Part shown: in pieces, positions 12,100-55,827 of the stretch
How positions within the stretch are numbered: the first letter of the stretch is position 1
Layout of the letters: the number at the start of each line of letters is the position of its first letter
Assembly (NCBI GenBank): GCA_002862745.1
Contig: PKDX01000021.1
Coordinates: forward strand, 36,523 to 100,522
Direction: 5' to 3'
Length of the DNA: 64,000 nt
Origin: Bacteroidota bacterium
GTDB lineage: Bacteria > Bacteroidota > Bacteroidia > Chitinophagales > UBA8649
The notes under the pieces: model-generated
Databases searched by the model: none
What the model saw: only the letters and a program-made list of their open reading frames with translations
Told to the model about the DNA's origin: nothing
Made by a program: the position numbers and the translations under genes

Positions 12100-12501
12100 G
12101 ACGTAGCCTTCGAGTCCAAATCCAGCAATCAGTCCTTTACAAACTGGAGATAAAAGGTTGACTTGACGAAACTCCTCTCTTGCATAAGGATTGGAGATAT
12201 GTACCTCAACGACTGGTATATCAATGGCCGAAATAGCATCACGAAGAGCCACCGAGGTATGGGTGTAGCCACCGGCATTCAGGATAACACCATGATAACC
12301 TTTCACCTTGGCTTGTTGCAGGGCATCAATGAGCTCTCCCTCGATATTGGACTGTTTTTGATCGATGACACAACTCCCCTGATAAACATCCTTTACTTCT
12401 TGGAGGAATGTCAATAAGTCTTGGTCGCCATAAATTGAGGTTTCCCGCTGACCTACTAAATTCAAGTTTGGACCGTTAAGAATGAGGAGCTTTTTCATCA
12501 C
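12073..12501 (-). CDS. aroQ: type II 3-dehydroquinate dehydratase
   Basis: LILNGPNLNLVGQRETSIYG, NAGGYTHTSVALRDA and EVHISN motifs. An alternative start lies one codon downstream. Confidence 0.95.
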   Translation of the reverse strand: MMKKLLILNGPNLNLVGQRETSIYGDQDLLTFLQEVKDVYQGSCVIDQKQSNIEGELIDALQQAKVKGYHGVILNAGGYTHTSVALRDAISAIDIPVVEVHISNPYAREEFRQVNLLSPVCKGLIAGFGLEGYVLAVDSFLE

Positions 12502-12541
12502 TTGTATTGATTTACGAAAGTAACAAGTCCAAAGTTAGCCT

Positions 12542-13438: not shown

Positions 13439-13542
13439 TTGAGGATGCGAGAAAGCCCACGTTCCACCCCCGCCCTACGGGCAAAATAACCTCCTCAAAA
13501 AGTGTGCCGCTGACTTAATGATTATACCGCCTTTTCAAATGA

Positions 13543-14136
13543 CTAGGCAGCAGAAAATGCCTGGCCTTTCAGAATATACTTCCCAAGAATATCAAACTCT
13601 AAGTTCACCTTGGCGCCAACGGCCAAGTCGGAAAGATTAGTGTGTTCCCAAGTGTAGGGAATAATGGCTACATCAAAAGTTTTCCCATCCGTATTAAAGG
13701 CTGTCAGTGAAATGCCATTAACACAAATCGACCCTTTTTCAACGATCATAGCTTCTAAAGAGGGCTCATAGGCGAAGCGAAGCCTCCAAGAACCTTGTTC
13801 ATCATGGACTTCAACTAACTCCCCTACTTGATCTACGTGACCTTGAACCCAATGTCCATCCAATCGATCACCCACGCGCATGGCACGCTCTACATTGACC
13901 TTCGAACCTATCTTCCAGCTATCAATATTTGTTTTCTGACGAGTTTCAAGGACGGCAGATACCTTATAGCGACCGCCTTCAATGGCCTCTACCGTAAGGC
14001 ATGCACCATTGTGACTCAAGCTCTGATCTACCTTAAAGCTATCGGTCAAGGAAGAGGAGAGCCAAAGGCTTAGATTCTCCCCTTGAAGCACATGATCTTC
14101 AACTGTAGCTTGAGCTTCGATAATTCCTGTAAACAT
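13543..14136 (-). CDS. ribE: riboflavin synthase (alpha chain)
   Basis: MFTGIIE start and duplicated lumazine-binding halves (SLSHNGACLTV / SICVNGISLT). Confidence 0.95.
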   Translation of the reverse strand: MFTGIIEAQATVEDHVLQGENLSLWLSSSLTDSFKVDQSLSHNGACLTVEAIEGGRYKVSAVLETRQKTNIDSWKIGSKVNVERAMRVGDRLDGHWVQGHVDQVGELVEVHDEQGSWRLRFAYEPSLEAMIVEKGSICVNGISLTAFNTDGKTFDVAIIPYTWEHTNLSDLAVGAKVNLEFDILGKYILKGQAFSAA

Positions 14137-16901
14137 TATTGACTGCGTATTAAGTGAATAAATCCTCCGTTTCCAGCACCGAGAGGTAAATCAATCGCTT
14201 GAAGGCCACTTGTCGTGCGTACATAAGCTTTTCCCTCATAGAGATAGACTCCTTCTGAAGCCTCTGCCCCGCTGAGCACACTTCCATCCCAATTGATATC
14301 AGGATCTGTTGTCTCAAAGACCAGATTCCCCCAGGAGTGATAAATGCGAAACTCTACGGATTCAATAAAGCGGTACGGCATTCTCGGCGTATACAAATCA
14401 TTTTGGCCATCACCATTGGGTGTAAAAGTATTGGGCAACTCATAGATGGGACAATTTTCTACGCATACGGTATCTCCTGCAAGGCTCTCATTACCAAAGC
14501 CATCCACCGAAGTCACAACATAACAGCGAGCAAATGAAAGCAAGGAGAAATCCGTGTAGAACAGATCAGACGTATTGCCAATAAAACCATAGGTCGATCC
14601 ACCATCCTCTGAAACATAGATATTAAAGGACTCAACATCCTCACCACAGCCATTGTCTTGCGTCCACTCCAAGCGGTTATCAAAGCGGAAAACCCCTAAA
14701 TCATTACCTATTAGGTCGCAGTCATTACTAACCGACAAGGCAGGCGGACAAGGAGGAATGGTATCAATTGGAATACCACAGATGCGCTGTGATTTATTAA
14801 TCAAGGTATCATTGGCCAGCTCGGCTAATGTATAGGCTCCATAACTCTCCACATAATAGCAATAGTTCGAGTCATTGATGAGGCCTGTATCAAGATATAA
14901 GGTGGTTTCAACCGTGGTTAAGGAGTCAAATACTACTCCATTATCGAGGCTGCGATAGACCACGTAGGACGTGTTATTCCATGGCACATCTTCCTGCCAA
15001 GTCAAGTTCAACGCTTCGTTTTGGGCACCTATCGATAGATAAATGGACGACGCCGGAAGACTTTGACTAAACTGATTACTATCCCTTGTGTAGAAATCTA
15101 CCCTGTAGGATTCAGGGGAAGATAGTGTATTGAGTCCGTTATCCGTAAAGAAGGTGTCGATTAATCCAGCGTAAAGCACACTTGTTGAAGCATTGCGAAG
15201 CACACCGGGTGCAGGAGTAAAGGCTGCTTCTCCGTATACTTCAAATCGATAAGGACCAATTTCTGCAAGGGTATCAAGGGCTGTACTGTCGGCTAGAGGT
15301 CGTCTCCAACGTACAAAAACCTCCCCGCTTGACGCATCAGTTGATACAACGTCTACATTGGTAATTATGGGATCTACCAGGGGTAGGACCACACAGGCTT
15401 CATCAGATGGAACACTGCTTACTGCATTATAGGCAGGTGCATTGGGCGAGGCCTGCTGATTAAAGAATTCTGCCACGACAACATAGCTGTACTCATGCCC
15501 CGAAGGGACATCAATATCAGTAAAACTTGACGCTGTAATATTTGTTCCCACTACTTCATAACCGATCGAGGCTAAATCTGCATTACAACCAAAGCTTCCC
15601 ACACCACAACCATACCTTCGATAGACCGTAAAGTATTGGAAGGCATCGGAGGTCTCACAAGCATAGGGCGCATCCCACGTTAACGTGATGTCATTACCCA
15701 ATACGGTGGCCTGAAGGCCTGTAGGACGTGGCGGAACGACTTTTACTAAAAAGGATTCGATATCGACTAAGGGAACAGGCGTACCACTTACAGAGACGTA
15801 GTCATCTTCCGCTTTAAAAATCAATTGGTATTCCCCGGCGCTAATATCGCTGCAAATCGTAGCCCAAGCAAAAGTTGCGGTTGCTGGATTACCAGGCACT
15901 GCCGAAAATGCTGTTCGATCAGGAAAGTCAATAATGGGTGCTCCATTCGCACTTATAGTAACAACATCACTTGAATTAGGGTCTGTAGCACTAAGATTCA
16001 GCACCAGTGTGTCACCAGCTGTGATGCACGTATCGGCAATTGATGCTAATTGAGGTGGATCATTCGGCTCATTGACGACAATAATTTGCATATCGCGGAT
16101 TACTGTACCCATTTTTACCGCTACCCCATCAAAGTTTCGATACTCTTCAACAAGAATCGCAATATTATAGATACCCACTTGTTGAGGGGTTGCCCAAAGG
16201 AGCTCACCTGTGCGTGGGTTGATCGTAAAGCTGTTGTTTGCACCGGGAATGATTTGATCAGGATTGACATAGGCCGGCACATTGAGTCCAGGAGCCTGAA
16301 GTGGTGAAATCAGGGAAAAAACCAAACTATCCCCATCTGCATCGTAGGCATTAGGATTATGTAGGAAGGTATCCTGCACGTTGGCATAATCGATAGGCGG
16401 ATTAAAAAGAACCGGCGATGAATTTGAGCCAAAGATGTTCGGGTCTCGGTAAAAAATAGAGTCCTCGACGTAGAAGGCAATATTAACCGACCCTCCTGCT
16501 CCACCGGCAATATTAATTATATCGTCAATTCGGTTTTGATCGAGCATGGATACAACATAGGTGGAAACGCCTGGATAGGTGTGTACCGCGGTGTATTGAT
16601 TGAGCTTTACATCATCCCCAATGATTACGCCATCAGGAATTCCATTAAAGTCAAGATCAGGTCCGTTCGAACGCAGTACAAGTTCTTGCGTACCATCGCC
16701 CCAATTCAATAATAAACTATCACGGTCAGCTGCTGCCGATTGGTCACTTACCTTACTATAGGTCACAATGGTCAGACGTATTGTCTGAGGACCGATGGTC
16801 TCATAATAGATTTCCCCTGCTCTGTAATGCGTCGCGTGAAGCGTGCAGACATAGGCCATACATGCAATAAATAGACAGAAAAGGCGACTTAGGTGCTTCA
16901 C
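14136..16901 (-). CDS. large secreted repeat protein with T9SS type B (gliding motility-associated, CHU_C-like) C-terminal sorting domain
   Basis: C-terminal LPNTFTPNGDGQNDLYTP...WDG motif. I place the start at GTG 16901, giving signal peptide VKHLSRLFCLFIACMAYVCTLHA. The longer ORF to 17036 overlaps sdhB and is rejected. Confidence 0.75.
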   Translation of the reverse strand: MKHLSRLFCLFIACMAYVCTLHATHYRAGEIYYETIGPQTIRLTIVTYSKVSDQSAAADRDSLLLNWGDGTQELVLRSNGPDLDFNGIPDGVIIGDDVKLNQYTAVHTYPGVSTYVVSMLDQNRIDDIINIAGGAGGSVNIAFYVEDSIFYRDPNIFGSNSSPVLFNPPIDYANVQDTFLHNPNAYDADGDSLVFSLISPLQAPGLNVPAYVNPDQIIPGANNSFTINPRTGELLWATPQQVGIYNIAILVEEYRNFDGVAVKMGTVIRDMQIIVVNEPNDPPQLASIADTCITAGDTLVLNLSATDPNSSDVVTISANGAPIIDFPDRTAFSAVPGNPATATFAWATICSDISAGEYQLIFKAEDDYVSVSGTPVPLVDIESFLVKVVPPRPTGLQATVLGNDITLTWDAPYACETSDAFQYFTVYRRYGCGVGSFGCNADLASIGYEVVGTNITASSFTDIDVPSGHEYSYVVVAEFFNQQASPNAPAYNAVSSVPSDEACVVLPLVDPIITNVDVVSTDASSGEVFVRWRRPLADSTALDTLAEIGPYRFEVYGEAAFTPAPGVLRNASTSVLYAGLIDTFFTDNGLNTLSSPESYRVDFYTRDSNQFSQSLPASSIYLSIGAQNEALNLTWQEDVPWNNTSYVVYRSLDNGVVFDSLTTVETTLYLDTGLINDSNYCYYVESYGAYTLAELANDTLINKSQRICGIPIDTIPPCPPALSVSNDCDLIGNDLGVFRFDNRLEWTQDNGCGEDVESFNIYVSEDGGSTYGFIGNTSDLFYTDFSLLSFARCYVVTSVDGFGNESLAGDTVCVENCPIYELPNTFTPNGDGQNDLYTPRMPYRFIESVEFRIYHSWGNLVFETTDPDINWDGSVLSGAEASEGVYLYEGKAYVRTTSGLQAIDLPLGAGNGGFIHLIRSQ

Positions 16902-16945
16902 ACCTTGAAAATACTGCCAAAAATCGAATCGAGTAGAGTCCAAGC

Positions 16946-17692
16946 TTAGGTTGGCGAAACAGAGGATTGAAGATAGAGACGATTCATTCGTGCGATGTTC
17001 TCTAGGGATATTCCTTTGGGGCATTCCGCACTGCATGCTCCTGTGTTGGTGCAGTTACCAAATCCTTCTTCATCCATCTGAGCAACCATACTACGTACAC
17101 GCTCTTTAGACTCCACTTTTCCTTGAGGAAGCCGGTCCAGTTGGGCAATTTTCGCAGAGACAAAAAGCATTGCTGAGGCATTCTTACAACTCGCAACACA
17201 GGCTCCACAACCGATACAAGTTGCCGCATTAAAGGCCTCATCGGCTTCTTCCTTACGAATAGGAATAGCATTTCCGTCAGGCGCTGCCCCAGTTCCTACC
17301 GAAACAAATCCTCCTGACTGAATAATTCGATCAAAGGCAGAGCGGTCGACCATAAGGTCGCGCACAACAGGAAAACCTTTAGCACGGAAAGGCTCGATAT
17401 AAATAGAATCGCCATCCTTAAAGGAGCGCATATGCAATTGGCACGTCGTCGTTCCCTGCTGAGGACCGTGGGGCTGACCATTAATCACCATTGAGCACAT
17501 CCCACAGATTCCCTCGCGACAATCATGATCGAAGGCGATTGGCTCATCGCCCCCCTCAATAATTTGTTGGTTCAAAACATCCATCATTTCTAGGAAGGAC
17601 ATATCCTCGGAAACGTTATCCAACGTGTAGTCAACCATTTTCCCTTGGGTTTGCGCATCTTTTTGGCGCCATACGTGTAAGGTCAATTTCAT
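16946..17692 (-). CDS. sdhB: succinate dehydrogenase/fumarate reductase iron-sulfur subunit
   Basis: Cys clusters [20 protein letters not shown] and [12 protein letters not shown]. Confidence 0.95.
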
Positions 17693-43208: not shown

Positions 43209-44090
43209 TTAGCTTCTTGGATGAGCTGCCTTATGACTTGATTTTAAATGCTCAATACTTTGGTGGGTATAAATCTGAGTAGAAGCTAGACTTGCATGCC
43301 CAAGGAGAGACTGAATAGTCTGTATATCCACCCCGCGATTCAACAAATGCGTAGCAATTGAATGCCTTAACACGTGTGGACTTTTACGTTCTGTGGAACT
43401 TATCGCTTTAAGCACTCTATTTACAGCCGTGTAGACTTTTTTTGGATAGAGCGCTTTGCCATTACTTAAGGTAAATACATGATTCGATTCTACTCCATCT
43501 TCCTGCCGCAGCACTTTCAACGAAATGCAGGCTTTCATGATTTCTTTTCGCACAGGTATAATTCTTTCCTTATTACGCTTACCCAAAACTCGTAAAGTCA
43601 ATGCGCGTTGATCCAATCGATCATAGGTTAAGGCAATCAACTCCGCCCGACGCATACCCGTTTCATAAAGCAATACAAAGAGCAAGGCCTCTTGAAAGTC
43701 GGTCCAGTCGTCATATCCCTCCAATCGAGGCATCACAATATCCAACTCCGACTCCTGAACGTAGGATGGCAATCGATGGGGAACCTTTACACTTTGTACA
43801 GCGGAGGCAGGATTGGTAGAAATCATCTCACGCTCTGCTAGATAAGAAAACATCCCTTTAAGCGCAGAAATTTTACGATTAGTCGTCTTAGGCTCCCACC
43901 CATTAGACATGCCATCCAATACAAACCGTCGAATTTGTCTCGTGTTAACATTCCTTACAGCGGGCAGATCATTGTTCTCTACAAATTCTTGAAAATCAAG
44001 TAAATCCCTTTGATAGGCCTTAAGCGTATTTACACTTAACCTTTTCTCATATTTCAAGAAATCTAAATATTGGAGAACTTCTTGTTGCAT
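43209..44090 (-). CDS. tyrosine recombinase, XerC-like
   Basis: 293 aa. N-terminal core-binding domain (LSVNTLKAYQRDL), ETGMRRAEL, HVLRHSIATHLL and LGHASLASTQIYTH catalytic blocks. Confidence 0.85.
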   Translation of the reverse strand: MQQEVLQYLDFLKYEKRLSVNTLKAYQRDLLDFQEFVENNDLPAVRNVNTRQIRRFVLDGMSNGWEPKTTNRKISALKGMFSYLAEREMISTNPASAVQSVKVPHRLPSYVQESELDIVMPRLEGYDDWTDFQEALLFVLLYETGMRRAELIALTYDRLDQRALTLRVLGKRNKERIIPVRKEIMKACISLKVLRQEDGVESNHVFTLSNGKALYPKKVYTAVNRVLKAISSTERKSPHVLRHSIATHLLNRGVDIQTIQSLLGHASLASTQIYTHQSIEHLKSSHKAAHPRS

Positions 44091-44178: not shown

Positions 44179-44186
44179 TTACCTTA
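44179..44186 (+). promoter_or_regulatory. TTACCTTA motif 22 nt upstream of the ATG (shared TTAYCTTA element, copy 1)
   Basis: Same 8-mer, with one pyrimidine change, and same spacing as upstream of the next two genes. Confidence 0.3.
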
Positions 44187-44208
44187 GACCTTAGCTCAAT
44201 TGCAAAAT

Positions 44209-45765
44209 ATGTCGATGCGATTTAAACTTTTGTTTGGAACAGTTTCCTTCTTATCTCTAATTGTTACTCAGTGTATTGGGCAATTCTATGTGAACGGAGC
44301 TGATGTTATTGTGACTGCGAATGGCACAATGAGCGTAATTACAGACTCTGTTATTGTAGACAATGTCGGCAATCTTGAAAATGATGGTTTACTCTATGTC
44401 CAAAGAGATTTAGTTATCGAAAGTGGTGCTTTTAATAACCGTGAAGAGGCTGATATTGACAATACGGTAATCAATCAAGATAACCTCACCGCTGATGCTG
44501 ATCCGACAACTATCTTTCGCGTTGGCCAGGATTGGGAAAACAATGGAGCCTTTACGGCAGGCAATAGCACCGTAGAACTTAAAGGAGGGGATCAAGAAAT
44601 CCGTGGCACATCAATTAGTGCATTTTACGACCTAATATGCCTTGGTTCTTTCCCTGACATCAAAAGCCTCAATGCCATTGATGCCGATGTAACCAATTCC
44701 TTGGACCTTGGCAATATCGAATTTGCCACAAATGCTCAAAATTTAAATGTAACGAATCCAGATTTCCTTGCCATCCAACGCACCGATGGCTATGTAAGTA
44801 GTTTGGATGTAGGTAGACTGAATCGAGCGACGAATTCAACTAACACCTACCTCTTTCCAACTGGATCTTCAGCTGGAGCCATACGATATCGCCCGATCGA
44901 GTTCACCCCAGATGGCAATGATAACCGGGTATACGGAGCGCGTCTTGCCAATGTCGATGCCACGACGGAAGGATTTGACGTGAGTCTATATGACGATATA
45001 TTATGCGCAGTTAATCCTCAATATTACCACAGACTATATGGTACTGCCCCAGCAAATCTCAAGATGTTTTACAATCCTTTAGACGATGGGTCATGGGATG
45101 CCATGGCACATTGGGAAGGTGCACCCCTTTGGACTGACATGGGCAACCCAACGGAAATCAACGGTGTACCCTTTGTTTCCCTTGAAGTTACGAATTGGAA
45201 TAATTACACTGACCCTGCCTTTGCTCTTGCTATTCGTCAACCTCAACTTGAAGTTGGCCCTGACATCTACATCGAGCCAGGAAATTTCACAAATATTCCC
45301 GGAGCCTATTCAGGTCAAGCTCCTGCGGATATCGTTTGGGACCCCCCTTTTGATTTGAGTTGTGATGATTGCTTCGATCCAACTGCCACCCCGTTAACGA
45401 CAACGTTCTATACTCTTGCGGTAACACTCAATGACTATTGCGCTATTTCTGATAGCCTGACAATTTATGTTCTTGATGAGTTAGTCTATCTGCCTACAGC
45501 ATTTTCACCTAATGGAGATGGTAACAATGATGGATTCAGACCCATTGTTGTGGATGACAACATAGATTTCGACACTTGGGAATTTTCAATTTATAATCGT
45601 TGGGGAGAATTAGTATTTAAAACCAATGATGTGAATGAAGCTTGGGATGGAACATACAATGGAGAGAAGTCCCCACTATCAGTATATACTTGGTACACAA
45701 CCTATCGCTACGCTGACCAACAAGAAATTAAAAATCAAAAAGGAAACGTTACCCTAGTTCGGTAA
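44209..45765 (+). CDS. secreted protein with T9SS type B (gliding motility-associated, CHU_C-like) C-terminal sorting domain
   Basis: Start set to ATG 44209 (MSMRFKLLFGTVSFLSLIVTQCIG signal peptide). C-terminal LPTAFSPNGDGNNDGFRP...NRWGELVF...WDGTYNG motif. Confidence 0.8.
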   Translation: MSMRFKLLFGTVSFLSLIVTQCIGQFYVNGADVIVTANGTMSVITDSVIVDNVGNLENDGLLYVQRDLVIESGAFNNREEADIDNTVINQDNLTADADPTTIFRVGQDWENNGAFTAGNSTVELKGGDQEIRGTSISAFYDLICLGSFPDIKSLNAIDADVTNSLDLGNIEFATNAQNLNVTNPDFLAIQRTDGYVSSLDVGRLNRATNSTNTYLFPTGSSAGAIRYRPIEFTPDGNDNRVYGARLANVDATTEGFDVSLYDDILCAVNPQYYHRLYGTAPANLKMFYNPLDDGSWDAMAHWEGAPLWTDMGNPTEINGVPFVSLEVTNWNNYTDPAFALAIRQPQLEVGPDIYIEPGNFTNIPGAYSGQAPADIVWDPPFDLSCDDCFDPTATPLTTTFYTLAVTLNDYCAISDSLTIYVLDELVYLPTAFSPNGDGNNDGFRPIVVDDNIDFDTWEFSIYNRWGELVFKTNDVNEAWDGTYNGEKSPLSVYTWYTTYRYADQQEIKNQKGNVTLVR

Positions 45766-45881
45766 ATCCATTCATTTCCGTACTCGAATGTATGACTTCG
45801 AGTGCATTAGTTTCATATTCTGAGCAGTCCGCTATCTGAGGTGCGTAAGTCACTTCCTACTTTCACGCACAACCACAGCAT

Positions 45882-45889
45882 TTATCTTA
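45882..45889 (+). promoter_or_regulatory. TTATCTTA motif 24 nt upstream of the ATG (copy 2)
   Basis: See copy 1. Confidence 0.3.
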
Positions 45890-45913
45890 TTTTGGAAAGA
45901 TAACGGTAGAATT

Positions 45914-48900
45914 ATGCGTAATCGATATTTGATTTTCATTTTTAATCTTATAACCCTAAGCCTTCATGCCCAAAATAATGTAGGTGTAGGTACGCTCACG
46001 CCCAACGCTAATGCTGCATTGGATGTAGAAGCCAATGATAAAGGAATTCTGATTCCTAGATTAGATGCCGCGCAACGGGCGGCAATGACAGGATCATTAA
46101 CGGCTACTGAACGTGGATTACTGGTTTTTGACCCTACCGATATTCTTTTTTACTATTGGGATGGAATCACTTGGATAAGCTTTCCTTCTACAGGTGCAAG
46201 CGATGCCGATTGGTATGACATAATCACCAATGATGTTACCCCAGATATCAGCGCCGACATCTATACCTTAGGCAATGTAGGTATTGGGAACTCCTCTCCT
46301 GTATCCTCGCTGCAAGTAACTGGTGTTACGACTTCTGACAACTACGACATCATAGACTCAGATGGTGGATATGTTCGTGCAATGCAAGGAGGAACAACTG
46401 GAATTCCGGCCCCAAACTTTCATTTTCATCTTTTACCAGACTACAATGCCCAAGCCGGAGCCACAGAGATAAAAATGCATTATGGGTTTAACAGTGATGT
46501 GAATGATCATTCATTCTATTCCAAAAATTCAGGGACCAACGTGGAAATTTTCAGAATCAATGATAATGGAAACACTTTTCTACTAGGCGATTTTCGCCCC
46601 AATGACTTGCCAGGGGCCGCCGGACAAGTTCTTCAAAGTCAAGGCGCTAATGCAAGCCCAATCTGGATTGATTTACCTGACAACAGCCCAACCAACGAGT
46701 TGCTAGTATCTGCCATACTAAACGGTACGAATCTCGAACTGACCGATGCTGGAGGAACCCTTTCAGTCGACCTAAGCTCCTTAACAAGCAGTGCCGGGAC
46801 GGACGACCAAAACCTTACAGCCGCTACCCTTACAGGAACTACACTCCAAATTGATATTGAAAATGGAGGCTCCGTTAATGTTGATCTAGCATCGATTGCC
46901 GGCCTTGATGGTGCAGACGGTGCTGATGGCGCGGTTGGTCCCGCTGGTCCGCAAGGTCCTGCCGGCGCTGACGGTGCTGATGGCGCGGTTGGTCCCGCTG
47001 GTCCGCAAGGTCCTGCCGGCGCTGACGGTGCTGATGGCGCGGTTGGTCCCGCTGGTCCGCAAGGTCCTGCCGGTGCTGATGGCGCTGATGGCGCGGTTGG
47101 TCCCGCTGGCCCGCAAGGTCCTGCCGGTGCTGACGGTACTGATGGCGCGGTTGGTCCCGCGGGTCCGCAAGGTCCTGCCGGTGCAGACGGTGCTGATGGC
47201 GCGGTTGGTCCCGCTGGTCCGCAAGGTCCTGCCGGTGCTGACGGCGCGGTTGGTCCCGCTGGTCCGCAAGGTCCTGCCGGTGCAGACGGTACTGATGGTG
47301 CGGTTGGTCCCGCTGGTCCACAAGGTCCTGCCGGTGCTGACGGTACTGATGGCGCGGTTGGTCCCGCTGGTCCGCAAGGTCCTGCCGGTGCTGACGGTAA
47401 TGATGGCGCGGTTGGTCCCGCTGGTCCGCAAGGTCCTGCCGGTCCTGATGACCAAAACTTAACGTCAGCTGTTTTAACTGGCTCTTTGCTTACCATCAAT
47501 ATCGAGAATGGAAATTCCACGAGTGTCGATCTATCCGGCCTTACAGGATCTACAACGTCACCATGGACAGATGCAGGTGCATGGGTTTATCCAACAAACT
47601 CAACACAACAAGTGGTTACAGGGAATTCTATTCCGTTAACAGGTGCTGCGCTACATGCTTACAACCTAAGTCAAAATCACGCTAATGGTCTTTTCGTTGA
47701 CCACGACTACAATGGAAACAATAATAATTTTGGACTACAAGTTGTCGCGGATCCTGTAACATCCTCCGGATTGTCTTACGGGATGCGAAGTACACTTGTT
47801 AAAGCCAATGCTGAATTGGTTGGGATATTCTCAGGCGTATCTAAACTTGGATCCAGCTCAGAAACTGGGCCGACAAGAGGATTACAAGTAGATGTAGTTA
47901 ATAACTCACCCTTAAATGGAGAAGATACACGAGGCATCATGTCTCAAGTCACCAACTTTTCACCAAATGGAAACGTATATGGTGCCTACCTCAATGCAAT
48001 AAATAATGGCCCAGGGGGGAACATTTATGGCTTATACAGCCAAGTTAGCCCGGGACAGAATAGCGTAGCAGGTCAATTCGAAGGCCAAGTAATCATTCAT
48101 GATAACAATACAACTCCTGCATCTGCTCTACTTACGGTAGAGGACTTCGGAGGTTTGCCCGCTCTATATGTTGAGGACAGTCGTTTTGTAGGGATTTCAA
48201 CTACTACATTGTCTCCTGAAGCGAACTTGACCATTGGTGCATTAGGCGCTTTAGAAGGTGGTCATTTAGTGTTAAATGGAGGAAGCAACCATGCCAATAG
48301 TGCCTTCCATATCGATAACTTTGAAGGAAGAATGCGCGTGCTCTATGGCGTCAATAACACGATTTCTACCAATGAAATTATCAATATCAAAGGACCTAAC
48401 GCGAATTCTGTAGCTCAAATAGGCATTGGACCAATCGGCGGAAACCTCTGGCCTGATGAATCAGGTTTGATTATTGGAGCGACTGACCAAAGTATTCCGG
48501 GTGATGAAGGTGGACAAATACAACTCAATGCTGCGGCGAGTGCGCTCTACAACGTAGCATGGTTTATCGACAACTTCCAAAATGAATTCCGCATCATGCA
48601 TGGTAATGATATTACGGGTTCTGTGGGAGGCGTTGCGATGGTAGTGAATAACGGTGGCAACTTAACCGTTGCTAACCAAGGGTTTAAGCCCGGAGGCGGC
48701 ATGTGGGCGACAACCTCTGATGTACGATTAAAGACCAATATCAATAACTTTAAGGGCGGTCTCGACGAAGTGTTACAAATCAGACCTGTGACCTATCAAT
48801 ACAATGAAACATCCGGTTTTCAGCAAGAAGTTTTGGATAAAACGTACCATGGTATTATAGCCCAAGAAATGCAAGAAATTGCTCCCTATATGGTGGGAGA

Positions 48901-49030
48901 TTTTGAGATAGATGGTACCACATACCTCAATTACGATGGGAATGCCTTGATTTACATGCTCGTTAATGCAATACAAGAACAGCAGTTACAAATAGAACAA
49001 CTGGAAGAACGCCTGGAAAAACTCAAATAA
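45914..49030 (+). CDS. collagen-like, tail-fibre-domain protein with C-terminal intramolecular chaperone (endosialidase/peptidase S74-like) domain
   Basis: Signal peptide MRNRYLIFIFNLITLSLHAQ and 61 uninterrupted Gly-X-Y triplets. The C-terminus SDVRLKTNI...IRPVTYQYNE...YHGIIAQEMQEIAPYMV...coiled coil matches the S74 chaperone signature. Confidence 0.85.
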   Translation: MRNRYLIFIFNLITLSLHAQNNVGVGTLTPNANAALDVEANDKGILIPRLDAAQRAAMTGSLTATERGLLVFDPTDILFYYWDGITWISFPSTGASDADWYDIITNDVTPDISADIYTLGNVGIGNSSPVSSLQVTGVTTSDNYDIIDSDGGYVRAMQGGTTGIPAPNFHFHLLPDYNAQAGATEIKMHYGFNSDVNDHSFYSKNSGTNVEIFRINDNGNTFLLGDFRPNDLPGAAGQVLQSQGANASPIWIDLPDNSPTNELLVSAILNGTNLELTDAGGTLSVDLSSLTSSAGTDDQNLTAATLTGTTLQIDIENGGSVNVDLASIAGLDGADGADGAVGPAGPQGPAGADGADGAVGPAGPQGPAGADGADGAVGPAGPQGPAGADGADGAVGPAGPQGPAGADGTDGAVGPAGPQGPAGADGADGAVGPAGPQGPAGADGAVGPAGPQGPAGADGTDGAVGPAGPQGPAGADGTDGAVGPAGPQGPAGADGNDGAVGPAGPQGPAGPDDQNLTSAVLTGSLLTINIENGNSTSVDLSGLTGSTTSPWTDAGAWVYPTNSTQQVVTGNSIPLTGAALHAYNLSQNHANGLFVDHDYNGNNNNFGLQVVADPVTSSGLSYGMRSTLVKANAELVGIFSGVSKLGSSSETGPTRGLQVDVVNNSPLNGEDTRGIMSQVTNFSPNGNVYGAYLNAINNGPGGNIYGLYSQVSPGQNSVAGQFEGQVIIHDNNTTPASALLTVEDFGGLPALYVEDSRFVGISTTTLSPEANLTIGALGALEGGHLVLNGGSNHANSAFHIDNFEGRMRVLYGVNNTISTNEIINIKGPNANSVAQIGIGPIGGNLWPDESGLIIGATDQSIPGDEGGQIQLNAAASALYNVAWFIDNFQNEFRIMHGNDITGSVGGVAMVVNNGGNLTVANQGFKPGGGMWATTSDVRLKTNINNFKGGLDEVLQIRPVTYQYNETSGFQQEVLDKTYHGIIAQEMQEIAPYMVGDFEIDGTTYLNYDGNALIYMLVNAIQEQQLQIEQLEERLEKLK
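46910..47440 (+). repeat. tandem array of nine 54-bp units and one 45-bp unit, encoding GADG(A/T/N)DGAVGPAGPQGPA
   Basis: Unit boundaries at 46910, 46964, 47018, 47072, 47126, 47180, 47234 (45 bp), 47279, 47333 and 47387. Units differ by only a few nucleotides. The array is visibly GC-rich relative to its flanks. Confidence 0.95.
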
Positions 49031-49125
49031 ACGGTTCACAGTCAGATAATTATGATTTTTTTTGGACAACTAATCATGTGGTCTATGAGCAACGCAATCT
49101 GAATTGTTAATCTCACATCTTCGCC

Positions 49126-49133
49126 TTATCTTA
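49126..49133 (+). promoter_or_regulatory. TTATCTTA motif 22 nt upstream of the ATG (copy 3)
   Basis: See copy 1. Confidence 0.3.
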
Positions 49134-49155
49134 GAAGACTGAAATTTTCACAACT

Positions 49156-52100
49156 ATGCGTTCACTTTATCTAATCCTTGTAGTATTAGTTTGTTCAACA
49201 GTCACCTTGTTCGCTCAGGACAATGTGGGTATAGGAACACTTACACCTAATCCAAATGCTGCCCTCGATGTTGAGAGCAACGACAAAGGACTTCTTATTC
49301 CAAGACTTGACCCTGCGCAACGCGCAGCAATACAACTTGGTCTTGGAGCTGCCGAAACAGGACTCCTCGTTTTCGACCCGGTCGATGAGTTGTTCTACTA
49401 TTGGGATAATACACAAGCGGTTTGGGTACCGTTTTCGGATGACCAAAACATTGATTCAGTAGTTCTCAATGCAGATACTACACTCACGGTCTACATTGAA
49501 AATGGGGCTTCAGCTACCGTAGATGTGCGACCATTAATCAATGACCCAGATTTCGATCCGACTAATGAGATTCAGGATTTAGCGATGAACGCAACGCTAG
49601 ATAGCCTGTTGATTTCATTGGGAGGTACTGGTGTTGCACTAACTGATCTTGATCGCCAGGATCTTATTTACGATGCAATAGCAGATAGTTTATTGATTAC
49701 GAATGGAGCAGGAATAGCTCTTGACAGTATTGATAATCAAGGAATTGACTCCTTTAGCATTAGTGGAACAGTACTTACAGTCCACATTGAAAATGGCAGC
49801 CCTGCATCGATTGACCTTGCCGGATTGCCCACGATTCAGGACTTAGATTCAGCCATCTTAAACCCAGATTCAACGCTTACTATCTACATTGAGGCCGCCC
49901 TGCCAACAACCGTTGATTTATCTTCTTTATTTGACAATACCGATGCACAAACATTAAGCCTTAATGCCACAGGGACCGAATTATCCATTTCAAATGGGAA
50001 CACGGTCACCCTAGTGGATGCGGATTCTACGAATGAATTACAAGACTTGAGCTTGAACCCCGCTGGAGACTCTTTATTAATATCAAATGGTCAAGGAATT
50101 CTTTTATCTGGAATTGACAATCAAAACATCGACTCCTTTGTTTTAAATGCAGACTCTACACTTACCGTGTTTATTCAAGATGGTAGCTCAGCTACTGTAG
50201 ATGTCAGCTCTCTTTTTGATAATACAGATGATCAAAATATAACATCTGTTATACTCAACGGAGATTCAACGATTACGGTGAACATTGAAAACGGCACGTC
50301 GGCTTCAGTAGACGTAAGTTCTTTGTTTGACAATACCGATGACCAGGATATTACCTCCGTAGTCCTCAATGCGGATTCAACACTTACCGTAAACATTGAA
50401 AATGGCGCATCAGCTACCGTAGACCTGTCTAGTGTGTTTGACAACACAGATAACCAAAACATTGATTCTGTTGTACTCAATGGAACAGTTGCTACCGTAT
50501 TCATCGAAGATGGAAGTTCTGCTTCTGTAGATTTAGCTTCACTTATTGATGACGCTGACGCAGATCCAACCAATGAGTTCCAAAACCTGAGCTTTAATGG
50601 CAGTGGAGACTCTTTACTGATATCAAATGGAACAGGCGTAGAGCTTACAGGAATCGACAATCAAAATATAGATTCAGTAATACTGAATTCTGATTCAACA
50701 ATCACCGTCTTTATCGAAGATGGACTTCCTGCTACGGTAAATGTGGCTAGTCTTTTTGACAATACGGATGCACAAACATTAAGCCTTAACGCTACGGGTA
50801 CTGAGTTATCAATTTCAAATGGCAATACAGTCACATTAGTGGATGCTGACTCTACGAATGAGTTACAGTCACTTCTTGTGGACCGTATCACAGACTCGCT
50901 ATACATCTCAGGATTAAATGGAGATACGCTTATGGGTATTGATCTCAATGATGTTATCACTTGCGTTATCCCTCCACAAAACCTCACCTACGCCATAATG
51001 GATGGAGATACACTCGAAATCGATATTGAAGGCGGTGATAGTGTGCGCGTTGATTTATCTCAATTCTTAGACAACACCGACAATCAAGATATCACATCAG
51101 TTGTACTGAATGCTGATTCTACGATTACCGTGAATATCCAAAATGGAGCTTCTGCTACCGTTGATGTTGCGGCGATCTTTGACAATACAGACGATCAAAA
51201 CCTTGATTCAATCAGTCTAGCAGGCACTGTAGCTACTGTATTTATTGAAGGCGGTGCATCTGCATCAATTGATCTTGCATCCCTTGTAGATGATGCCGAT
51301 GCCGATCCGACCAACGAACTTCAAGACCTGAGCTTTAATGGGGCGGGTGACTCTCTTCTGATATCCAATGGACTAGGTGTCGCGCTATCGGGAATTGACA
51401 ACCAGGACATTACCTCAATTGTCCTCAACGGAGATTCGAGTCTGACCGTAAATATCGAGGATGGTGCTTCGGCTACCGTCGATTTAACAAGTCTTTTTGA
51501 CAATACCGATGATCAAGACATCACCTCAGTTGTACTCAATGCCGACTCAACCATCACCGTGAATATCGAAAATGGGGCTTCCGCTACCGTTGATGTCAGT
51601 TCAGCTTTCGACAATACCGATGACCAAAACATCACCAGTGTTGTACTCAATGCGGACTCAACCATTACCGTTAATATCGAGAATGGAACGTCTGCTACAG
51701 TTGATATTAGTTCAGCTTTTGACAATACGGACGATCAAAACATCACCTCAGTTGTACTTAATGCCGACTCAACCATTACCGTCAATATCGAAAATGGAAC
51801 GTCTGCTACAGTTGACATCAGTTCAGCATTCGACAATACGGATGATCAAAATATCACCTCAGTTGTACTCAATGCGGATTCAACGCTTACCGTAAACATT
51901 GAGAATGGAAGTTCTGCTACGGTAGATCTTACTTCAGCCTTTGATAATACCGATGATCAAAACATTGATTCTGTCGTACTAAATGGCACTGTAGCCACAG
52001 TGTATATTGAAGGAGGAAGCGCTGCGTCTGTTGACCTTGCTTCATTAATTGATGATGCCGATGCGGATGCAACAAACGAGTTAAACACAGGTGTTGTGCT

Positions 52101-55100
52101 CAACGGCACTGACCTTGAAGTAACCGATGCAGGTGGAACGATCACTACAGACCTATCCTCTCTTGTGGATGACGCCGATGCCGACCCTACAAATGAACTA
52201 CAGGATTTGAGTATCAATGCAGCCAATGATTCTATTCTTATTTCTAACGGACAAGGTATTTCGTTAGGAAGCCTTGACACGGATGATCAAAATTTAGATT
52301 CAGCTGTTTTAAATGCCGACTCTACCCTATCAATCTTTATCCAAGATGGCACCTCTACTTCAGTCGACCTTTCATCAGTCTTTGATAATACGGATGCTCA
52401 AACACTTAGCCTGAATGCCATAGGTACTGAGCTATCGATTTCAAATGGCAATACAGTCACTTTAGTAGATGCTGACTCCACGAATGAGTTACAGACACTT
52501 CTTGTTGATCGTATCACAGACTCTCTTTATATCTCAGGCTCAAACGGAGACACCTTAATGGGAATTGATCTAAATGACGTAATTACTTGTGTCATTCCTC
52601 CGCAAAATCTCACCTACGCCATAATGGATGGAGATACGCTCGAAATCGATATTGAAGGGGGTGATAGTGTGCGCGTCGATTTATCTCAGTTCTTAGATAA
52701 TACAGACAATCAAGATATCACGTCAGTTGTACTGAATGCTGATTCGACGATTACCGTGAATATCCAAAATGGAGCTTCTGCTACGGTTGATGTTGCTGCA
52801 ATCTTTGATAATACAGACGATCAAAACCTTGATTCAATCAGTCTAGCAGGCACTGTAGCTACTGTATTTATTGAAGGCGGTGCATCTGCATCTATTGACC
52901 TAGCATCTCTTGTGGATGATGCCGATGCCGATCCGACAAACGAGCTAACGACAAGCGTCATCCTGAACGGGACGGACCTCGAAGTCACCGATGCTGGAGG
53001 AACCATTACTACTAATCTTTCTTCACTTGTAGATGATGCTGATGCGGATCCTACAAATGAATTAACCACAGGAGTTGTACTTAATGGTACTGACCTTGAA
53101 GTAACCGATGCAGGTGGAACCATTACTACTGACCTCTCCTCACTTGTGGATGATGCCGATGCTGACCCTATAAACGAGTTGACTACAGGTGTTGTTCTTA
53201 ACGGCACTGACCTTGAAGTAACCGATGCAGGAGGAACCATTACTACTGATCTTTCTTCTCTTGTCGATGACGCCGATGCGGATCCTACAAATGAATTGAA
53301 TACAGGTGTTGCACTTAATGGTACTGACCTTGAAGTAACCGATGCAGGTGGAACCATCACTACCGATTTATCTTCTCTTGTAGATGATGCTGATGCTGAT
53401 CCTAATAACGAATTGACTACAGGTGTTGTACTCAATGGCACTGACCTAGAAGTCACTGATGCAGGAGGAACCATTACTACTGATCTTTCTTCTCTTGTCG
53501 ATGATGCCGATGCGGATCCTACAAATGAATACAACACGAGTGTTGTTCTTAATGGTACTGACCTTGAAGTAACCGATGCAGGTGGAATAATTACTACTGA
53601 TCTTTCTTCTCTTGTCGATGACGCCGATGCGGATCCTGCAAATGAATTACAAGACCTGAGCATTAATGCTACAAGTGACTCCATATTAATATCTAATGGA
53701 CTTGGAATACCTGCTGGTGGAATTCCTCTTTCAGCAGTTGACACGGATGAACAAAACTTAGATTCGGCCACGCTAACAGGTACAAACCTCACAGTTTATA
53801 TTGAGAATGGATCATCTGCTGGGGTGGATTTAGGCCCCTTGCAAGATGCCGATTGGTTTGTTGAAGGCGGTGGTGATGTTGCCACAAGTATAAATCAAAA
53901 CATCTATACGAATGGTTTTGTAGGTATAGGAAATAACGCTCCTGGACTTACATTAGATATTGCAGGAGATATAGCCTTTAGAGAGACGGCGTCTAACACG
54001 ACCACTTCTCCAATCACCAATTTTGCTGCAGGAACCTTAAATACTTCTTTCTACACATTTAATGGTCAGGTAAGTGACTTTACAATTAATACAATTGCTC
54101 AACCAAGCGATGGTAAAGTACTCGTACTCCAAAATGCAACGTCATTCAACATGACCTTGATAAATGAATCAGCTTCAGCCATTGGAGTGGCCATCCGAAC
54201 GATGACAGGCTCTGATTTAACGTTAACAGGCCAATCTACTGTTACTTTAATTTATTCAGCATCTGAAAATCGTTGGATTGTACTTGCATTCCAAGATGAA
54301 ACTACCCTAGATGCAGATGCCCAAACTCTAACACTTACTAACGATAATCAGTTAAGTATCTCCAATGGTAATACCGTAACCATGGTTGACGCAGATTCTA
54401 CCAACGAGCTTCAAACGCTTATTGTAGATCGAATTACAGACTCATTGTATATCTCAGGAACTAGTGGAGATACATTGATGGGTATTGATCTCAATGATGT
54501 AATTACTTGTGTTATTCCTCCTCAAAACCTCACTTATGCAAACCTTATTGGTGATACACTAGAAATTGATATCGAGGGGGGTGATAGCGTTCGAGTCGAC
54601 CTTTCCTCTTTAGGTAGTAATGACCTAGATGATGCCTATGACCAAGGAGGACCTGGTGTAGGACGAATAATCCAGGCGGATAGTGGACCAGTAGAAATTA
54701 TTGGTGGAGACGGAATTATGGTAAGCACGAATGGAGTTGGGATAGGAACACCCATTCCCAATATTCCTAATGGAACCTCTGTCATGTACTATAGCCCAAC
54801 TAAGGGTGCATTCAGAGCTGGGGGTACAGCCAATAACCGATGGGATGATGCATCTGTAGGATTGTTTTCATGGGCTGGGGGAAGCAACTCTTTAGCTTCT
54901 GCACCCTATACATTTGCATGGGGTAATGGAGGTAGCGCAAGCGCAGAAAATGCAATTTCTCTAGGCGCTGCCAATACAGTTTTTGGTGTGAGCAGTATTG
55001 CATTAGGAACGAATAATCAAATTGGTGGAAGCCAATCAGTTATTCTTGGCACAAACAACAGAATTGACGAATTCAATACGGTGATACTTGGTCCAGACAA

Positions 55101-55827
55101 CTATGCTCGAAGAAGAGGTAGCATAATTATTGGAGAGGAAAATACAACCAATGGAAATTTCGAATATGTTATTGGAGCAGACAACATTGTATCACGAACT
55201 AATGGCATAGTTGTAGGATTTAACAACGTTTCTGCATCAGAATTTGGAGTGATAATTGGATCAGATAACTCAACAAGTAACCTATCAAGATCTTCCTATG
55301 TTTTAGGAAACAACATGGACCTTAGAGGTAGCAGTGAAGTAGGCTTAGGACAGTTTAATAACATTAATGTTCCTTTCTCCCAATTATGGGATGTACGAGA
55401 CAGGTTGTTTACTATTGGAAATGGACAGAATGCTGGTACTCGATCGAATGCGATGACCATCTTAAAGAGCGGAAATGTTGGACTTGGAAATACAACAGAA
55501 GGTCTAAGTCCACCTAACCTCCTTACGCTTGACAATGGTGCAGCCGATCCATTAAAGATCAACAATTTAGTCACTGACAACACCTTATCCCAAGTATTAG
55601 TTATTGATGCCAACGGCGTAGTTCACGCAATGGATATCTCTTCAATTTCTCCAACAGTACCAGGAGGTGCTAACACTCCTAATGGCTTAGGTGTTGCAGA
55701 CATTAATACCCTGCAGCAAACCATTCAACAGCAACAAGGTCAGATTGATGCTTTGATTCAGCAAAACCAAGACTTACTATTCCGTCTTGAGCAGCTCGAG
55801 CTAGGGAATAATCCGACTAACCCTTAA
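49156..55827 (+). CDS. giant (2223 aa) secreted repeat/fibre protein with YadA-head-like beta-roll and C-terminal coiled coil
   Basis: Signal peptide MRSLYLILVVLVCSTVTLFAQ and an N-terminal domain paralogous to the previous gene. Dozens of ~37-39-aa modules, a block of 14-residue hhhGxxN repeats, and a Q/L-rich heptad C-terminus. No T9SS C-terminal domain and no beta-barrel anchor are recognisable. Confidence 0.85.
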   Translation: MRSLYLILVVLVCSTVTLFAQDNVGIGTLTPNPNAALDVESNDKGLLIPRLDPAQRAAIQLGLGAAETGLLVFDPVDELFYYWDNTQAVWVPFSDDQNIDSVVLNADTTLTVYIENGASATVDVRPLINDPDFDPTNEIQDLAMNATLDSLLISLGGTGVALTDLDRQDLIYDAIADSLLITNGAGIALDSIDNQGIDSFSISGTVLTVHIENGSPASIDLAGLPTIQDLDSAILNPDSTLTIYIEAALPTTVDLSSLFDNTDAQTLSLNATGTELSISNGNTVTLVDADSTNELQDLSLNPAGDSLLISNGQGILLSGIDNQNIDSFVLNADSTLTVFIQDGSSATVDVSSLFDNTDDQNITSVILNGDSTITVNIENGTSASVDVSSLFDNTDDQDITSVVLNADSTLTVNIENGASATVDLSSVFDNTDNQNIDSVVLNGTVATVFIEDGSSASVDLASLIDDADADPTNEFQNLSFNGSGDSLLISNGTGVELTGIDNQNIDSVILNSDSTITVFIEDGLPATVNVASLFDNTDAQTLSLNATGTELSISNGNTVTLVDADSTNELQSLLVDRITDSLYISGLNGDTLMGIDLNDVITCVIPPQNLTYAIMDGDTLEIDIEGGDSVRVDLSQFLDNTDNQDITSVVLNADSTITVNIQNGASATVDVAAIFDNTDDQNLDSISLAGTVATVFIEGGASASIDLASLVDDADADPTNELQDLSFNGAGDSLLISNGLGVALSGIDNQDITSIVLNGDSSLTVNIEDGASATVDLTSLFDNTDDQDITSVVLNADSTITVNIENGASATVDVSSAFDNTDDQNITSVVLNADSTITVNIENGTSATVDISSAFDNTDDQNITSVVLNADSTITVNIENGTSATVDISSAFDNTDDQNITSVVLNADSTLTVNIENGSSATVDLTSAFDNTDDQNIDSVVLNGTVATVYIEGGSAASVDLASLIDDADADATNELNTGVVLNGTDLEVTDAGGTITTDLSSLVDDADADPTNELQDLSINAANDSILISNGQGISLGSLDTDDQNLDSAVLNADSTLSIFIQDGTSTSVDLSSVFDNTDAQTLSLNAIGTELSISNGNTVTLVDADSTNELQTLLVDRITDSLYISGSNGDTLMGIDLNDVITCVIPPQNLTYAIMDGDTLEIDIEGGDSVRVDLSQFLDNTDNQDITSVVLNADSTITVNIQNGASATVDVAAIFDNTDDQNLDSISLAGTVATVFIEGGASASIDLASLVDDADADPTNELTTSVILNGTDLEVTDAGGTITTNLSSLVDDADADPTNELTTGVVLNGTDLEVTDAGGTITTDLSSLVDDADADPINELTTGVVLNGTDLEVTDAGGTITTDLSSLVDDADADPTNELNTGVALNGTDLEVTDAGGTITTDLSSLVDDADADPNNELTTGVVLNGTDLEVTDAGGTITTDLSSLVDDADADPTNEYNTSVVLNGTDLEVTDAGGIITTDLSSLVDDADADPANELQDLSINATSDSILISNGLGIPAGGIPLSAVDTDEQNLDSATLTGTNLTVYIENGSSAGVDLGPLQDADWFVEGGGDVATSINQNIYTNGFVGIGNNAPGLTLDIAGDIAFRETASNTTTSPITNFAAGTLNTSFYTFNGQVSDFTINTIAQPSDGKVLVLQNATSFNMTLINESASAIGVAIRTMTGSDLTLTGQSTVTLIYSASENRWIVLAFQDETTLDADAQTLTLTNDNQLSISNGNTVTMVDADSTNELQTLIVDRITDSLYISGTSGDTLMGIDLNDVITCVIPPQNLTYANLIGDTLEIDIEGGDSVRVDLSSLGSNDLDDAYDQGGPGVGRIIQADSGPVEIIGGDGIMVSTNGVGIGTPIPNIPNGTSVMYYSPTKGAFRAGGTANNRWDDASVGLFSWAGGSNSLASAPYTFAWGNGGSASAENAISLGAANTVFGVSSIALGTNNQIGGSQSVILGTNNRIDEFNTVILGPDNYARRRGSIIIGEENTTNGNFEYVIGADNIVSRTNGIVVGFNNVSASEFGVIIGSDNSTSNLSRSSYVLGNNMDLRGSSEVGLGQFNNINVPFSQLWDVRDRLFTIGNGQNAGTRSNAMTILKSGNVGLGNTTEGLSPPNLLTLDNGAADPLKINNLVTDNTLSQVLVIDANGVVHAMDISSISPTVPGGANTPNGLGVADINTLQQTIQQQQGQIDALIQQNQDLLFRLEQLELGNNPTNP
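50758..51321 (+). repeat. 564-bp intragenic segmental duplication, copy A (copy B at 52384..52947; partial copies at 49933..50043 and 54310..54612)
   Basis: The 188 encoded residues differ at 3 positions between A and B, with many synonymous nucleotide differences. Confidence 0.9.
51499..51942 (+). repeat. four tandem 111-bp units encoding DNTDDQ(N/D)ITSVVLNADST(I/L)TVNIENGxSATVDxxSAF
   Basis: Unit starts at 51499, 51610, 51721 and 51832, all in frame. Related degenerate units extend on both sides. Confidence 0.9.
52915..53616 (+). repeat. six tandem 117-bp units encoding DDADADPTNELTTGVVLNGTDLEVTDAGGTITTDLSSLV
   Basis: Unit starts at 52915, 53032, 53149, 53266, 53383 and 53500, all in frame. 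Confidence 0.9.

Follow-up and report, generated by a model that had tools for sequence, protein, structure and literature searches.

By what route do fibre proteins that carry a Sec signal peptide, and no recognised sorting domain or anchor, reach the surface of a Bacteroidota cell and stay there? The question is raised by three consecutive genes, g1, g2 and g3, on the forward strand of contig PKDX01000021.1 (Bacteroidota bacterium, a marine organism of Saprospirales type; assembly GCA_002862745.1). They were analysed within a stretch of 64,000 nucleotides (positions 36,523 to 100,522 of the contig), here called the window, to which all coordinates refer unless another locus is named. The first gene, g1 (44200-45765, + strand), encodes an exported protein of 521 residues when read from a TTG codon, and likely of 518. 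It is followed by g2 (45914-49030, +), which encodes a collagen-like fibre protein of 1038 residues, and g3 (49156-55827, +), which encodes a repeat-rich fibre protein of 2223 residues. A first-pass annotation of the same DNA had described three co-oriented genes with a signal peptide each. This description is borne out: the open reading frames (ORFs) are present, and in each N-terminus a charged n-region leads into a hydrophobic core, with a small residue and then Gln behind it.

The g1 protein ends in a type IX secretion system (T9SS) sorting domain of type B; g2 and g3 have no such domain, and g3 has no beta-barrel anchor. To our knowledge, the T9SS is currently thought to require a C-terminal sorting domain on every substrate. 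The individual parts of the three proteins are all of known kinds, namely a type-B cargo, a phage-type collagen fibre with an S74 chaperone and a YadA-like head. What appears to be undescribed, within the literature searched, is a conserved operon that combines a sorting-domain-free, tail-fibre-like trimer with a type-B cargo family and PorP/SprF; searches for collagen-like or tail-fibre proteins connected with the T9SS or with piggy-back secretion returned no description of such a module. For the route of the fibres across the outer membrane, this recurrent linkage with a type-B cargo family and its shuttle provides the sole clue. We give about even weight to the reading that the block is a trimeric fibre module encoded by the host and functionally coupled to a unit of type-B cargo and PorP/SprF, the fibres needing a g1-family partner in order to arrive at the cell surface or to stay attached there.

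Linkage of fibre genes with the g1 family

The fibre proteins g2 and g3 start with the same domain, PF26696 (PTL_trimer, PTL below), the distribution of which could be followed around relatives of g1. When metagenomes were scanned with only the g1 core, 80 true family loci were obtained. A genome scan with full-length g1 gave mostly unrelated type-B cargo, through generic CHU_C matches, and these loci were used as controls. Hidden Markov models (HMMs) of our own for PorP/SprF, the g1 core and the PTL domain were run over all loci. That for PorP/SprF started from three ORFs of 304 residues that lie between g1-family and PTL genes and are assigned to PorP_SprF by Pfam at E ~1e-74. After near-identical loci had been collapsed and a flank of at least 2.5 kb had been required on both sides, 31 g1-family loci remained.

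Eleven of the 31 loci have both a PTL and a PorP/SprF gene, six a PTL gene only, ten a PorP/SprF gene only and four neither. In 17 loci, thus, the g1-family gene has a neighbour on the same strand whose product opens with a signal peptide and then a PTL domain; a PorP/SprF gene is present in 21. No PTL gene was found near other type-B-domain genes in 72 control loci (1.23 Mb); comparison of the 17 of 31 loci with the 51 controls of at least 15 kb gives a Fisher p of 1.6e-9. The partner PTL genes in the 31-locus set all lie on the g1 strand and encode a signal peptide and then the PTL domain. Nearly all abut the g1-family or the PorP/SprF gene, many with gaps of 0-13 bp or an overlap of 4 bp.

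Three gene orders recur. In the first, a PTL gene of 460-650 codons precedes the g1-family gene and PorP/SprF. In the second, a long g1-family gene (1770-2300 codons) is followed by PorP/SprF and then by the PTL gene. In the third, the g1-family gene is short (about 520 codons) and is directly followed by the PTL gene, as in the window. The first-pass annotation had proposed that co-occurrence of the N-terminal domain with a type-B partner be checked. The linkage holds (17 of 31 loci, none of 51 controls). The exact order of three genes seen in the window is not conserved; what is maintained is a pair of one g1-family gene and one PTL fibre gene, usually with PorP/SprF.

Twenty-eight PTL proteins (26 partners together with g2 and g3) were aligned. 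Nine of them have a Collagen match and six have an S74 domain; a T9SS sorting domain was found in none of the 28.

Variants of the arrangement were also seen. Two tandem PorP/SprF genes follow the g1-family cargo gene at L128 13670-15796 and at L121 4700-6820. At L088 (9539-15658) a protein of 2040 residues is encoded downstream of a 39%-identical g1 homologue; it has a PTL start by a broader HMM and a collagen-like end, and no precomputed Pfam match.

Proposed route to the cell surface

The proposed pathway begins with export of g2 and g3 by Sec. Both would be cut by signal peptidase I ahead of the conserved Gln and would fold into homotrimeric fibres built from parts of the phage tail-fibre type. 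In g2 the 61-triplet collagen helix would be followed by an S74 chaperone that removes itself at Ser935, and the g3 fibre would run from the PTL domain through spacer modules and a YadA-like head into a coiled coil. The g1 protein would be handed to a PorP/SprF-type shuttle or anchor encoded elsewhere in the genome. A g1-family protein would then carry the sorting-domain-free fibres to the cell surface or hold them there, with the N-terminal PTL domain as a common docking end, in the manner of a phage fibre N-terminus on the virion, and with the variable distal parts as adhesive tips. The protein g1 is proposed as the partner because fibre genes recur tightly beside g1-family and PorP/SprF genes.

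The pathway has two variants: the fibre may cross the translocon together with g1, or it may dock on g1 after separate export. Type-B cargo is known to be anchored at the surface by binding to PorP-like outer-membrane proteins (PMC9143113). In Flavobacterium johnsoniae the cognate PorP/SprF shuttle gene follows most type-B cargo genes, and three orphan cargoes share a distant shuttle (PMC12618676). The T9SS passes folded proteins through the 36-strand SprA barrel (PMC9251779). Hitch-hiking in the strict sense, in which PTL-docked fibres cross the outer membrane on the type-B cargo through the T9SS translocon and are then displayed on the PorP/SprF anchor, is, on present evidence, the lesser expectation.

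Several observations weigh against a dependence of the fibres on g1. About 45% of the well-flanked g1-family loci lack a PTL gene, including that of the 46%-identical homologue P0005. Fibre genes are likewise missing next to the homologues P0020 and P0062, and the gene behind P0024 encodes an SprB-repeat type-A cargo. The partnership is not obligatory, since the g1 family is far smaller than that of the PTL proteins and some PTL genes are found in places without a g1-type gene. In many proteins the PTL domain is internal and present in repeats, as would be expected of a general trimer module more than of a signal dedicated to docking. Within the window, g1 and g2 are separated by a gap of 148 bp and a hairpin, so that their co-transcription is uncertain, and no PorP/SprF ORF is present in the whole 64 kb. 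No paper on hitch-hiking through the T9SS was found, and the physical contact between g1 and the fibres, the outer-membrane route and the surface exposure are all matters that we infer.

Three independent surface or secreted adhesins, brought together by shared regulation or island turnover, would account for some of these observations, with the fibres leaving the cell by an unrelated route such as vesicles, lysis or another pathway. Many g1 homologues have other neighbours (an SprB-repeat type-A cargo gene, DinB or none), PTL genes are found alone among housekeeping genes, and the hairpin lies between g1 and g2. Nevertheless, the adjacency is tight, co-oriented and recurrent across diverse metagenomes, with stop and start codons overlapping, and it is absent around other type-B cargo genes. 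A mere co-location of independent adhesins is regarded as doubtful.

As a family, the proteins that combine a signal peptide with a PTL domain are very numerous, and no known outer-membrane targeting signal was found in them. The operon of PTL, type-B cargo and PorP/SprF genes offers a concrete, testable hypothesis for the exit and location of such fibres, and it points to cultivable Chitinophagales or Saprospiraceae. If the partner-dependent route is true, the substrate rules of the T9SS would be widened, and the reuse by Bacteroidota of phage receptor-binding parts as fast-varying cell adhesins would be explained. If hitch-hiking in particular is true, the T9SS would have its first example of piggy-back secretion, and the fibres would form a new class of surface appendage that depends on it; there would also be a starting point for tracing how the very large PTL fibre family is exported.

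Signal peptides and missing sorting signals of the fibre proteins

Over 93 residues at their N-termini, g2 and g3 show 63% identity (E = 4e-31), and both proteins use the same type of spacer module, 37-39 residues long, in agreement with the common N-terminal domain and common modules noticed at first reading. Neither protein matches a T9SS sorting domain of type A (PF18962/TIGR04183) or type B at E <= 0.01, and neither has a YadA anchor or a usable lipobox. The earlier statement that both lack a sorting domain, a lipobox and a beta-barrel anchor thus stands.

The signal peptide of g2 occupies 45914-45970 (+) and that of g3 49156-49215 (+), both as read from the sequence. In nearly all PTL partner proteins the signal-peptide junction consists of a small residue, then Gln and N-V-G, directly before the PTL domain, a pattern that argues for cleavage by signal peptidase I. 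A lipoprotein reading of g2 and g3 was rejected on account of this junction and of Cys13 of g3, which has Val at position -1. Where the g3 signal peptide of the window (49156-49215) reads VLVC, that of its orthologue in a close relative (L001 14540-14620) has the lipobox-like VLAC.

The fibres might also be T9SS substrates in their own right, recognised through a signal that present models do not describe, for which the PTL domain and the segment ahead of the S74 cut are candidates, with g1 as only a co-regulated neighbour. Sorting-domain models are known to miss divergent signals, fibre genes are embedded in cargo/PorP-SprF operons, and a PTL gene at L175 adjoins a protein with a faint type-A sorting domain. 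These points are opposed by the lack of a type-A or type-B domain in the 28 aligned PTL proteins and among the 25 families listed for 66 members, by the varied C-termini of the fibres (S74, basic tails, coiled coil) and by the presence of the PTL domain in phages of cyanobacteria, hosts that have no T9SS. An undescribed signal on the fibres themselves is accordingly considered unlikely.

The PTL domain

In g2 the PTL domain spans residues 20-92 (45971..46189, +) and in g3 residues 21-94 (49216..49437, +). An HMM that we built from 539 copies of the domain recognises both at E ~1e-25 (3.5e-25 for g2 and 1.9e-24 for g3), and the Pfam assignment follows from precomputed matches to the orthologues in L001, that for g2 among them, and to P0001-P0003. 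What had been taken for a domain of unknown function is therefore PF26696, which is very widespread, often present in several copies and found in phages as well.

The size of the family became apparent only from an exhaustive profile search. A word-indexed homologue search gave three matches to the N-terminal domain, and a diverse alignment gave short proteins only. The exhaustive HMM search gave 45,143 cluster representatives (50% identity) at E <= 1e-3 and 14,803 at E <= 1e-10. The best 150 representatives mostly have two to four copies of the domain, and in 101 of them one copy starts within the first 45 residues. Among 66 representatives for which co-occurring families were listed, Peptidase_S74 is found 14 times and DUF2793 13 times, together with YadA_head, Fib_succ_major, tail Collar, gp38, Mtd_N and Lcl_C; a T9SS sorting domain is not among the 25 families listed.

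The PTL consensus also matches 112 phage records, mostly of T4-like cyanophages, and a narrow PTL alignment found three loci on viral contigs. The domain is a widespread fibre module that phages share, and not a private sorting signal. In Prochlorococcus phage Syn33 it is encoded by gene Syn33_042 (L094 5869-7263), between a tail fibre gene and gp38. Other viral PTL loci lie at L093 5062-6204 and in a Leptolyngbya phage.

The AlphaFold model of the g3 PTL domain, predicted as a monomer with a mean local confidence (pLDDT) of 88.2, has three short strands, a helix and a sheet formed by a beta-hairpin. It superimposes on predicted phage proteins with template-modelling (TM) scores of 0.6-0.7, some of these having collagen repeats, S74 or a tail-fibre annotation. 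Matches in the PDB are weak (E > 0.1) and almost all are to trimeric structures: the N-termini of the CBA120 tailspikes, HylP, Mtd and the trimerisation domains of collagens XV and XVIII. A PDB sequence search with the PTL profile gave no real match. By analogy with these proteins, the PTL domains of g2 and g3 may form trimers. A literature search for PF26696 or "PTL" found nothing, and no function is described in the searchable papers.

PTL genes were also seen in other settings. At L175 (5093-8901) two of them follow the protein with the faint type-A sorting domain, away from the g1 family. At L176 (7001-7746) overlapping PTL and S74 ORFs, probably a single frameshifted gene, lie between dnaE and a photolyase gene.

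The type-B cargo protein g1

The TTG codon at 44200 is the start given by the ORF call. The likely start is the ATG at 44209, which matches the start of a 94%-identical homologue. The protein has a Sec signal peptide that reads MSMRFKLLFGTVSFLSLIVTQCIG before the junction and QF after it, with a hydrophobic core. Its C-terminal sorting domain (residues 431-521; 45490..45762, +) matches PF13585 (CHU_C) with 55.9 bits, against a cut-off of 27, and the type-B model TIGR04131 with 54.9 bits, against a cut-off of 35. Both curated cut-offs are exceeded, and the type-B assignment made at first reading is confirmed.

The remaining 430 N-terminal residues match no Pfam family, the sorting domain being the sole Pfam assignment. 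The structure model (pLDDT 84.9) consists of an N-terminal beta-helix followed by immunoglobulin (Ig)-like or beta-sandwich domains. A Foldseek search with this model gave only generic matches to Ig arrays (PorU, GhpA and neural adhesion molecules), with TM-scores of at most about 0.2, and provided no functional lead. The family comprises 737 homologues from Saprospirales and Chitinophagales, the best of them 94% identical, with lengths from about 500 residues upwards. By its sequence, g1 is classed as a member of a conserved family of T9SS type-B cargo, and it fits an orphan cargo of this type.

A second protein with a type-B sorting domain is encoded in the window at 14136-17036 on the - strand. 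It has 966 residues, with CHU_C at residues 866-933, and no PorP/SprF neighbour.

The collagen fibre g2

The central rod of g2 is a run of 61 uninterrupted G-X-Y triplets (residues 330-512; 46901..47449, +), which matches PF01391 (Collagen) with 89.8 bits. Most of these triplets are encoded by a 54-nucleotide tandem repeat. Modules of 37-39 residues lie on both sides of the rod. The C-terminal Peptidase_S74 intramolecular chaperone (residues 935-1038; 48716..49027, +) gives 49.8 bits with PF13884, against a cut-off of 22, the match covering residues 935-994. The first-pass reading of a 61-triplet helix with an endosialidase-type chaperone is thus exact in the number of triplets and agrees with both family matches.

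The chaperone opens with SDVRLK at residues 935-940, the expected Ser/Lys self-cleavage motif. Endosialidase-type chaperones cut themselves off at such a site once the trimer has folded, and by analogy g2 may cleave itself at Ser935. Many PHROG tail-fibre families are matched by g2, the similarity lying in its collagen and S74 parts.

The repeat-rich fibre g3

Behind the PTL domain, g3 consists largely of an array of 37-39-residue modules (49444..53835, +), with a further set at 54304-54633 and about 40 modules in total. At the DNA level they appear as tandem arrays of 111 and 117 nucleotides. Large internal duplications are also present between 49844 and 54600, where 300-nucleotide segments recur at a spacing of 1626 nucleotides with 87% identity. 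An assignment of the modules to DUF2442 was rejected: the score is a sum over repeats, and no single stretch passes alone.

The modules are followed by a candidate beta-roll head of the YadA/UspA1 kind (residues ~1895-2085; 54838..55410, +). Its similarity to PDB entries is weak but consistent (UspA1 3ntn, E = 1.3e-5; EibD, 9e-4; BpaC, 1e-3), and it scores 16.8 bits with PF05658 (YadA_head), below the cut-off of 25. The protein ends in a Gln/Leu-rich coiled coil (55681..55803, +), which is evident in the sequence and gives weak matches to SlyX and DivIC. Of the head and coiled coil described at first reading, the coiled coil is retained, and the head is weaker than had been claimed. No YadA_anchor was matched in g3.

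The dimensions of the two proteins bear on the idea that the fibres stay in the periplasm or the envelope, for instance as tethers of PorP/PorE-type complexes, and are never exposed at the surface. Such a location would suit proteins with a Sec signal and no recognised outer-membrane targeting signal, and PorP/PorE complexes are fixed to the cell wall (PMC9143113; PMC12618676). However, the 61-triplet rod and a fibre of 2223 residues that includes some 40 modules and a YadA-like head far exceed the width of the periplasm. The number of collagen triplets differs greatly between strains (61 as against 15), which is typical of exposed surface proteins, and the distal domains in the wider family are of receptor-binding types (gp38, Mtd, Collar, Lcl_C). 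A permanently periplasmic location is thus quite improbable.

Genomic surroundings

The block lies downstream of a tuf/tRNA cluster and upstream of genes for an acyl-CoA dehydrogenase, a phosphoribosyltransferase, a ComEA-like protein, an alanine symporter and RuvB. Directly upstream of g1, between it and the tRNA cluster, is a gene for a Xer-type tyrosine recombinase (43209-44090, -), which is absent from the first-pass annotation. The recombinase aligns over its full length to the XerC (266 bits) and XerD (231 bits) models, both scores being below the equivalog cut-offs. It is conserved in L001-L003 and is probably context and not part of the fibre module.

The relative represented by L001, a Saprospirales metagenome-assembled genome by annotation, is about 87-89% identical in the stretches of DNA that were sampled. 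It keeps the gene order from rpoB to the acyl-CoA dehydrogenase, with the block between the recombinase and the acyl-CoA dehydrogenase. Its g2 orthologue (11712-14414) has 900 residues and its g3 orthologue 2144, as compared with 2223 here. Since the g2 rod has 61 triplets in the window and 15 in a relative this close, the number of repeats changes quickly between strains.

The flanks of the block within the window contain no phage structural, lysis or replication genes, and the G+C content is about 0.40-0.44 across the block and its flanks, except in the collagen repeat (0.48-0.55). Because of these features, and because its position is kept in the relative, the block is chromosomal and host-encoded and not a prophage, as the first-pass annotation had also concluded. 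A domesticated tail-fibre cassette, left by a prophage or tailocin and put beside the tRNA cluster by the adjacent recombinase, would explain the tyrosine recombinase and tRNA cluster directly upstream, the PHROG tail-fibre matches of g2 and the PTL domain shared with phages. It is hard to reconcile with flanks free of capsid, tail, lysis and replication genes, with a recombinase that is of the Xer type over its full length, with the G+C content, and with Sec signal peptides on both fibres, which virion proteins do not need. Moreover, g1 and g3 have no match among the PHROG families, and the linkage to T9SS genes is conserved. There is little doubt, then, that a phage remnant is the wrong description.

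Relation to known systems

In its type-B domain g1 resembles the cargo proteins that are paired with PorP/SprF, such as SprB-SprF and the Fjoh_3952-type pairs in F. johnsoniae and PG1035-PorP-PorE in Porphyromonas gingivalis. The resemblance extends to the PorP/SprF gene that directly follows the g1-family gene in 21 of the 31 loci, and orphan cargoes such as g1 would be are documented (PMC12618676). The described modules differ in having no conserved Sec-exported, tail-fibre-like trimer free of a sorting domain, and the window differs from them in having no PorP/SprF gene and a cargo whose 430 N-terminal residues lack a Pfam assignment.

The collagen run, the S74 Ser/Lys motif and the PHROG matches of g2 are features of phage tail fibres and tailspikes with S74 and of collagen-like tail fibres, with which the PTL domain is also shared. 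Unlike these, g2 and g3 have Sec signals and housekeeping neighbours, are not accompanied by virion genes and are linked to secretion-system genes. To the trimeric autotransporter adhesins (YadA, UspA1, EibD, BpaC) g3 shows a weak but consistent resemblance in its candidate 14-residue-type beta-roll head, which is followed by a coiled coil. It differs in lacking the YadA-type beta-barrel, in a head that scores below the cut-off, in the order of its parts, and in a foreign N-terminal stalk of repeats with a PTL domain; a classification of g3 as a trimeric autotransporter was rejected for want of a YadA-type anchor. The long uninterrupted G-X-Y rod of g2, with its strain-variable copy number, recalls bacterial collagen-like surface proteins such as Scl1/Scl2, BclA and Lcl. 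However, g2 has no LPXTG or exosporium anchor, scores far below the NCBIfam cut-offs and has other ends for trimerisation and anchoring.

Upstream sequences

A scan for sigma-70 promoters and terminators gave no more sites than shuffled sequence, the promoter model being ill-suited to Bacteroidota. The first-pass annotation had noticed an 8-mer shared upstream of the three genes. It is found as TTATCTTA before g2, where the full motif TTAYCTTAGA is not present; the longer motif stands before g1 and g3. The copy ahead of g1, the 10-mer TTACCTTAGA (44179..44188, +), recurs before g3, and it is this motif, and not a gene start, that sets the beginning of the block at 44179. The second copy, TTATCTTAGA (49126-49135, +), lies 21 nucleotides before the g3 start codon. 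TTAYCTTAGA occurs three times within the window, as compared with 0.28 expected, and it may be a regulatory element shared by g1 and g3.

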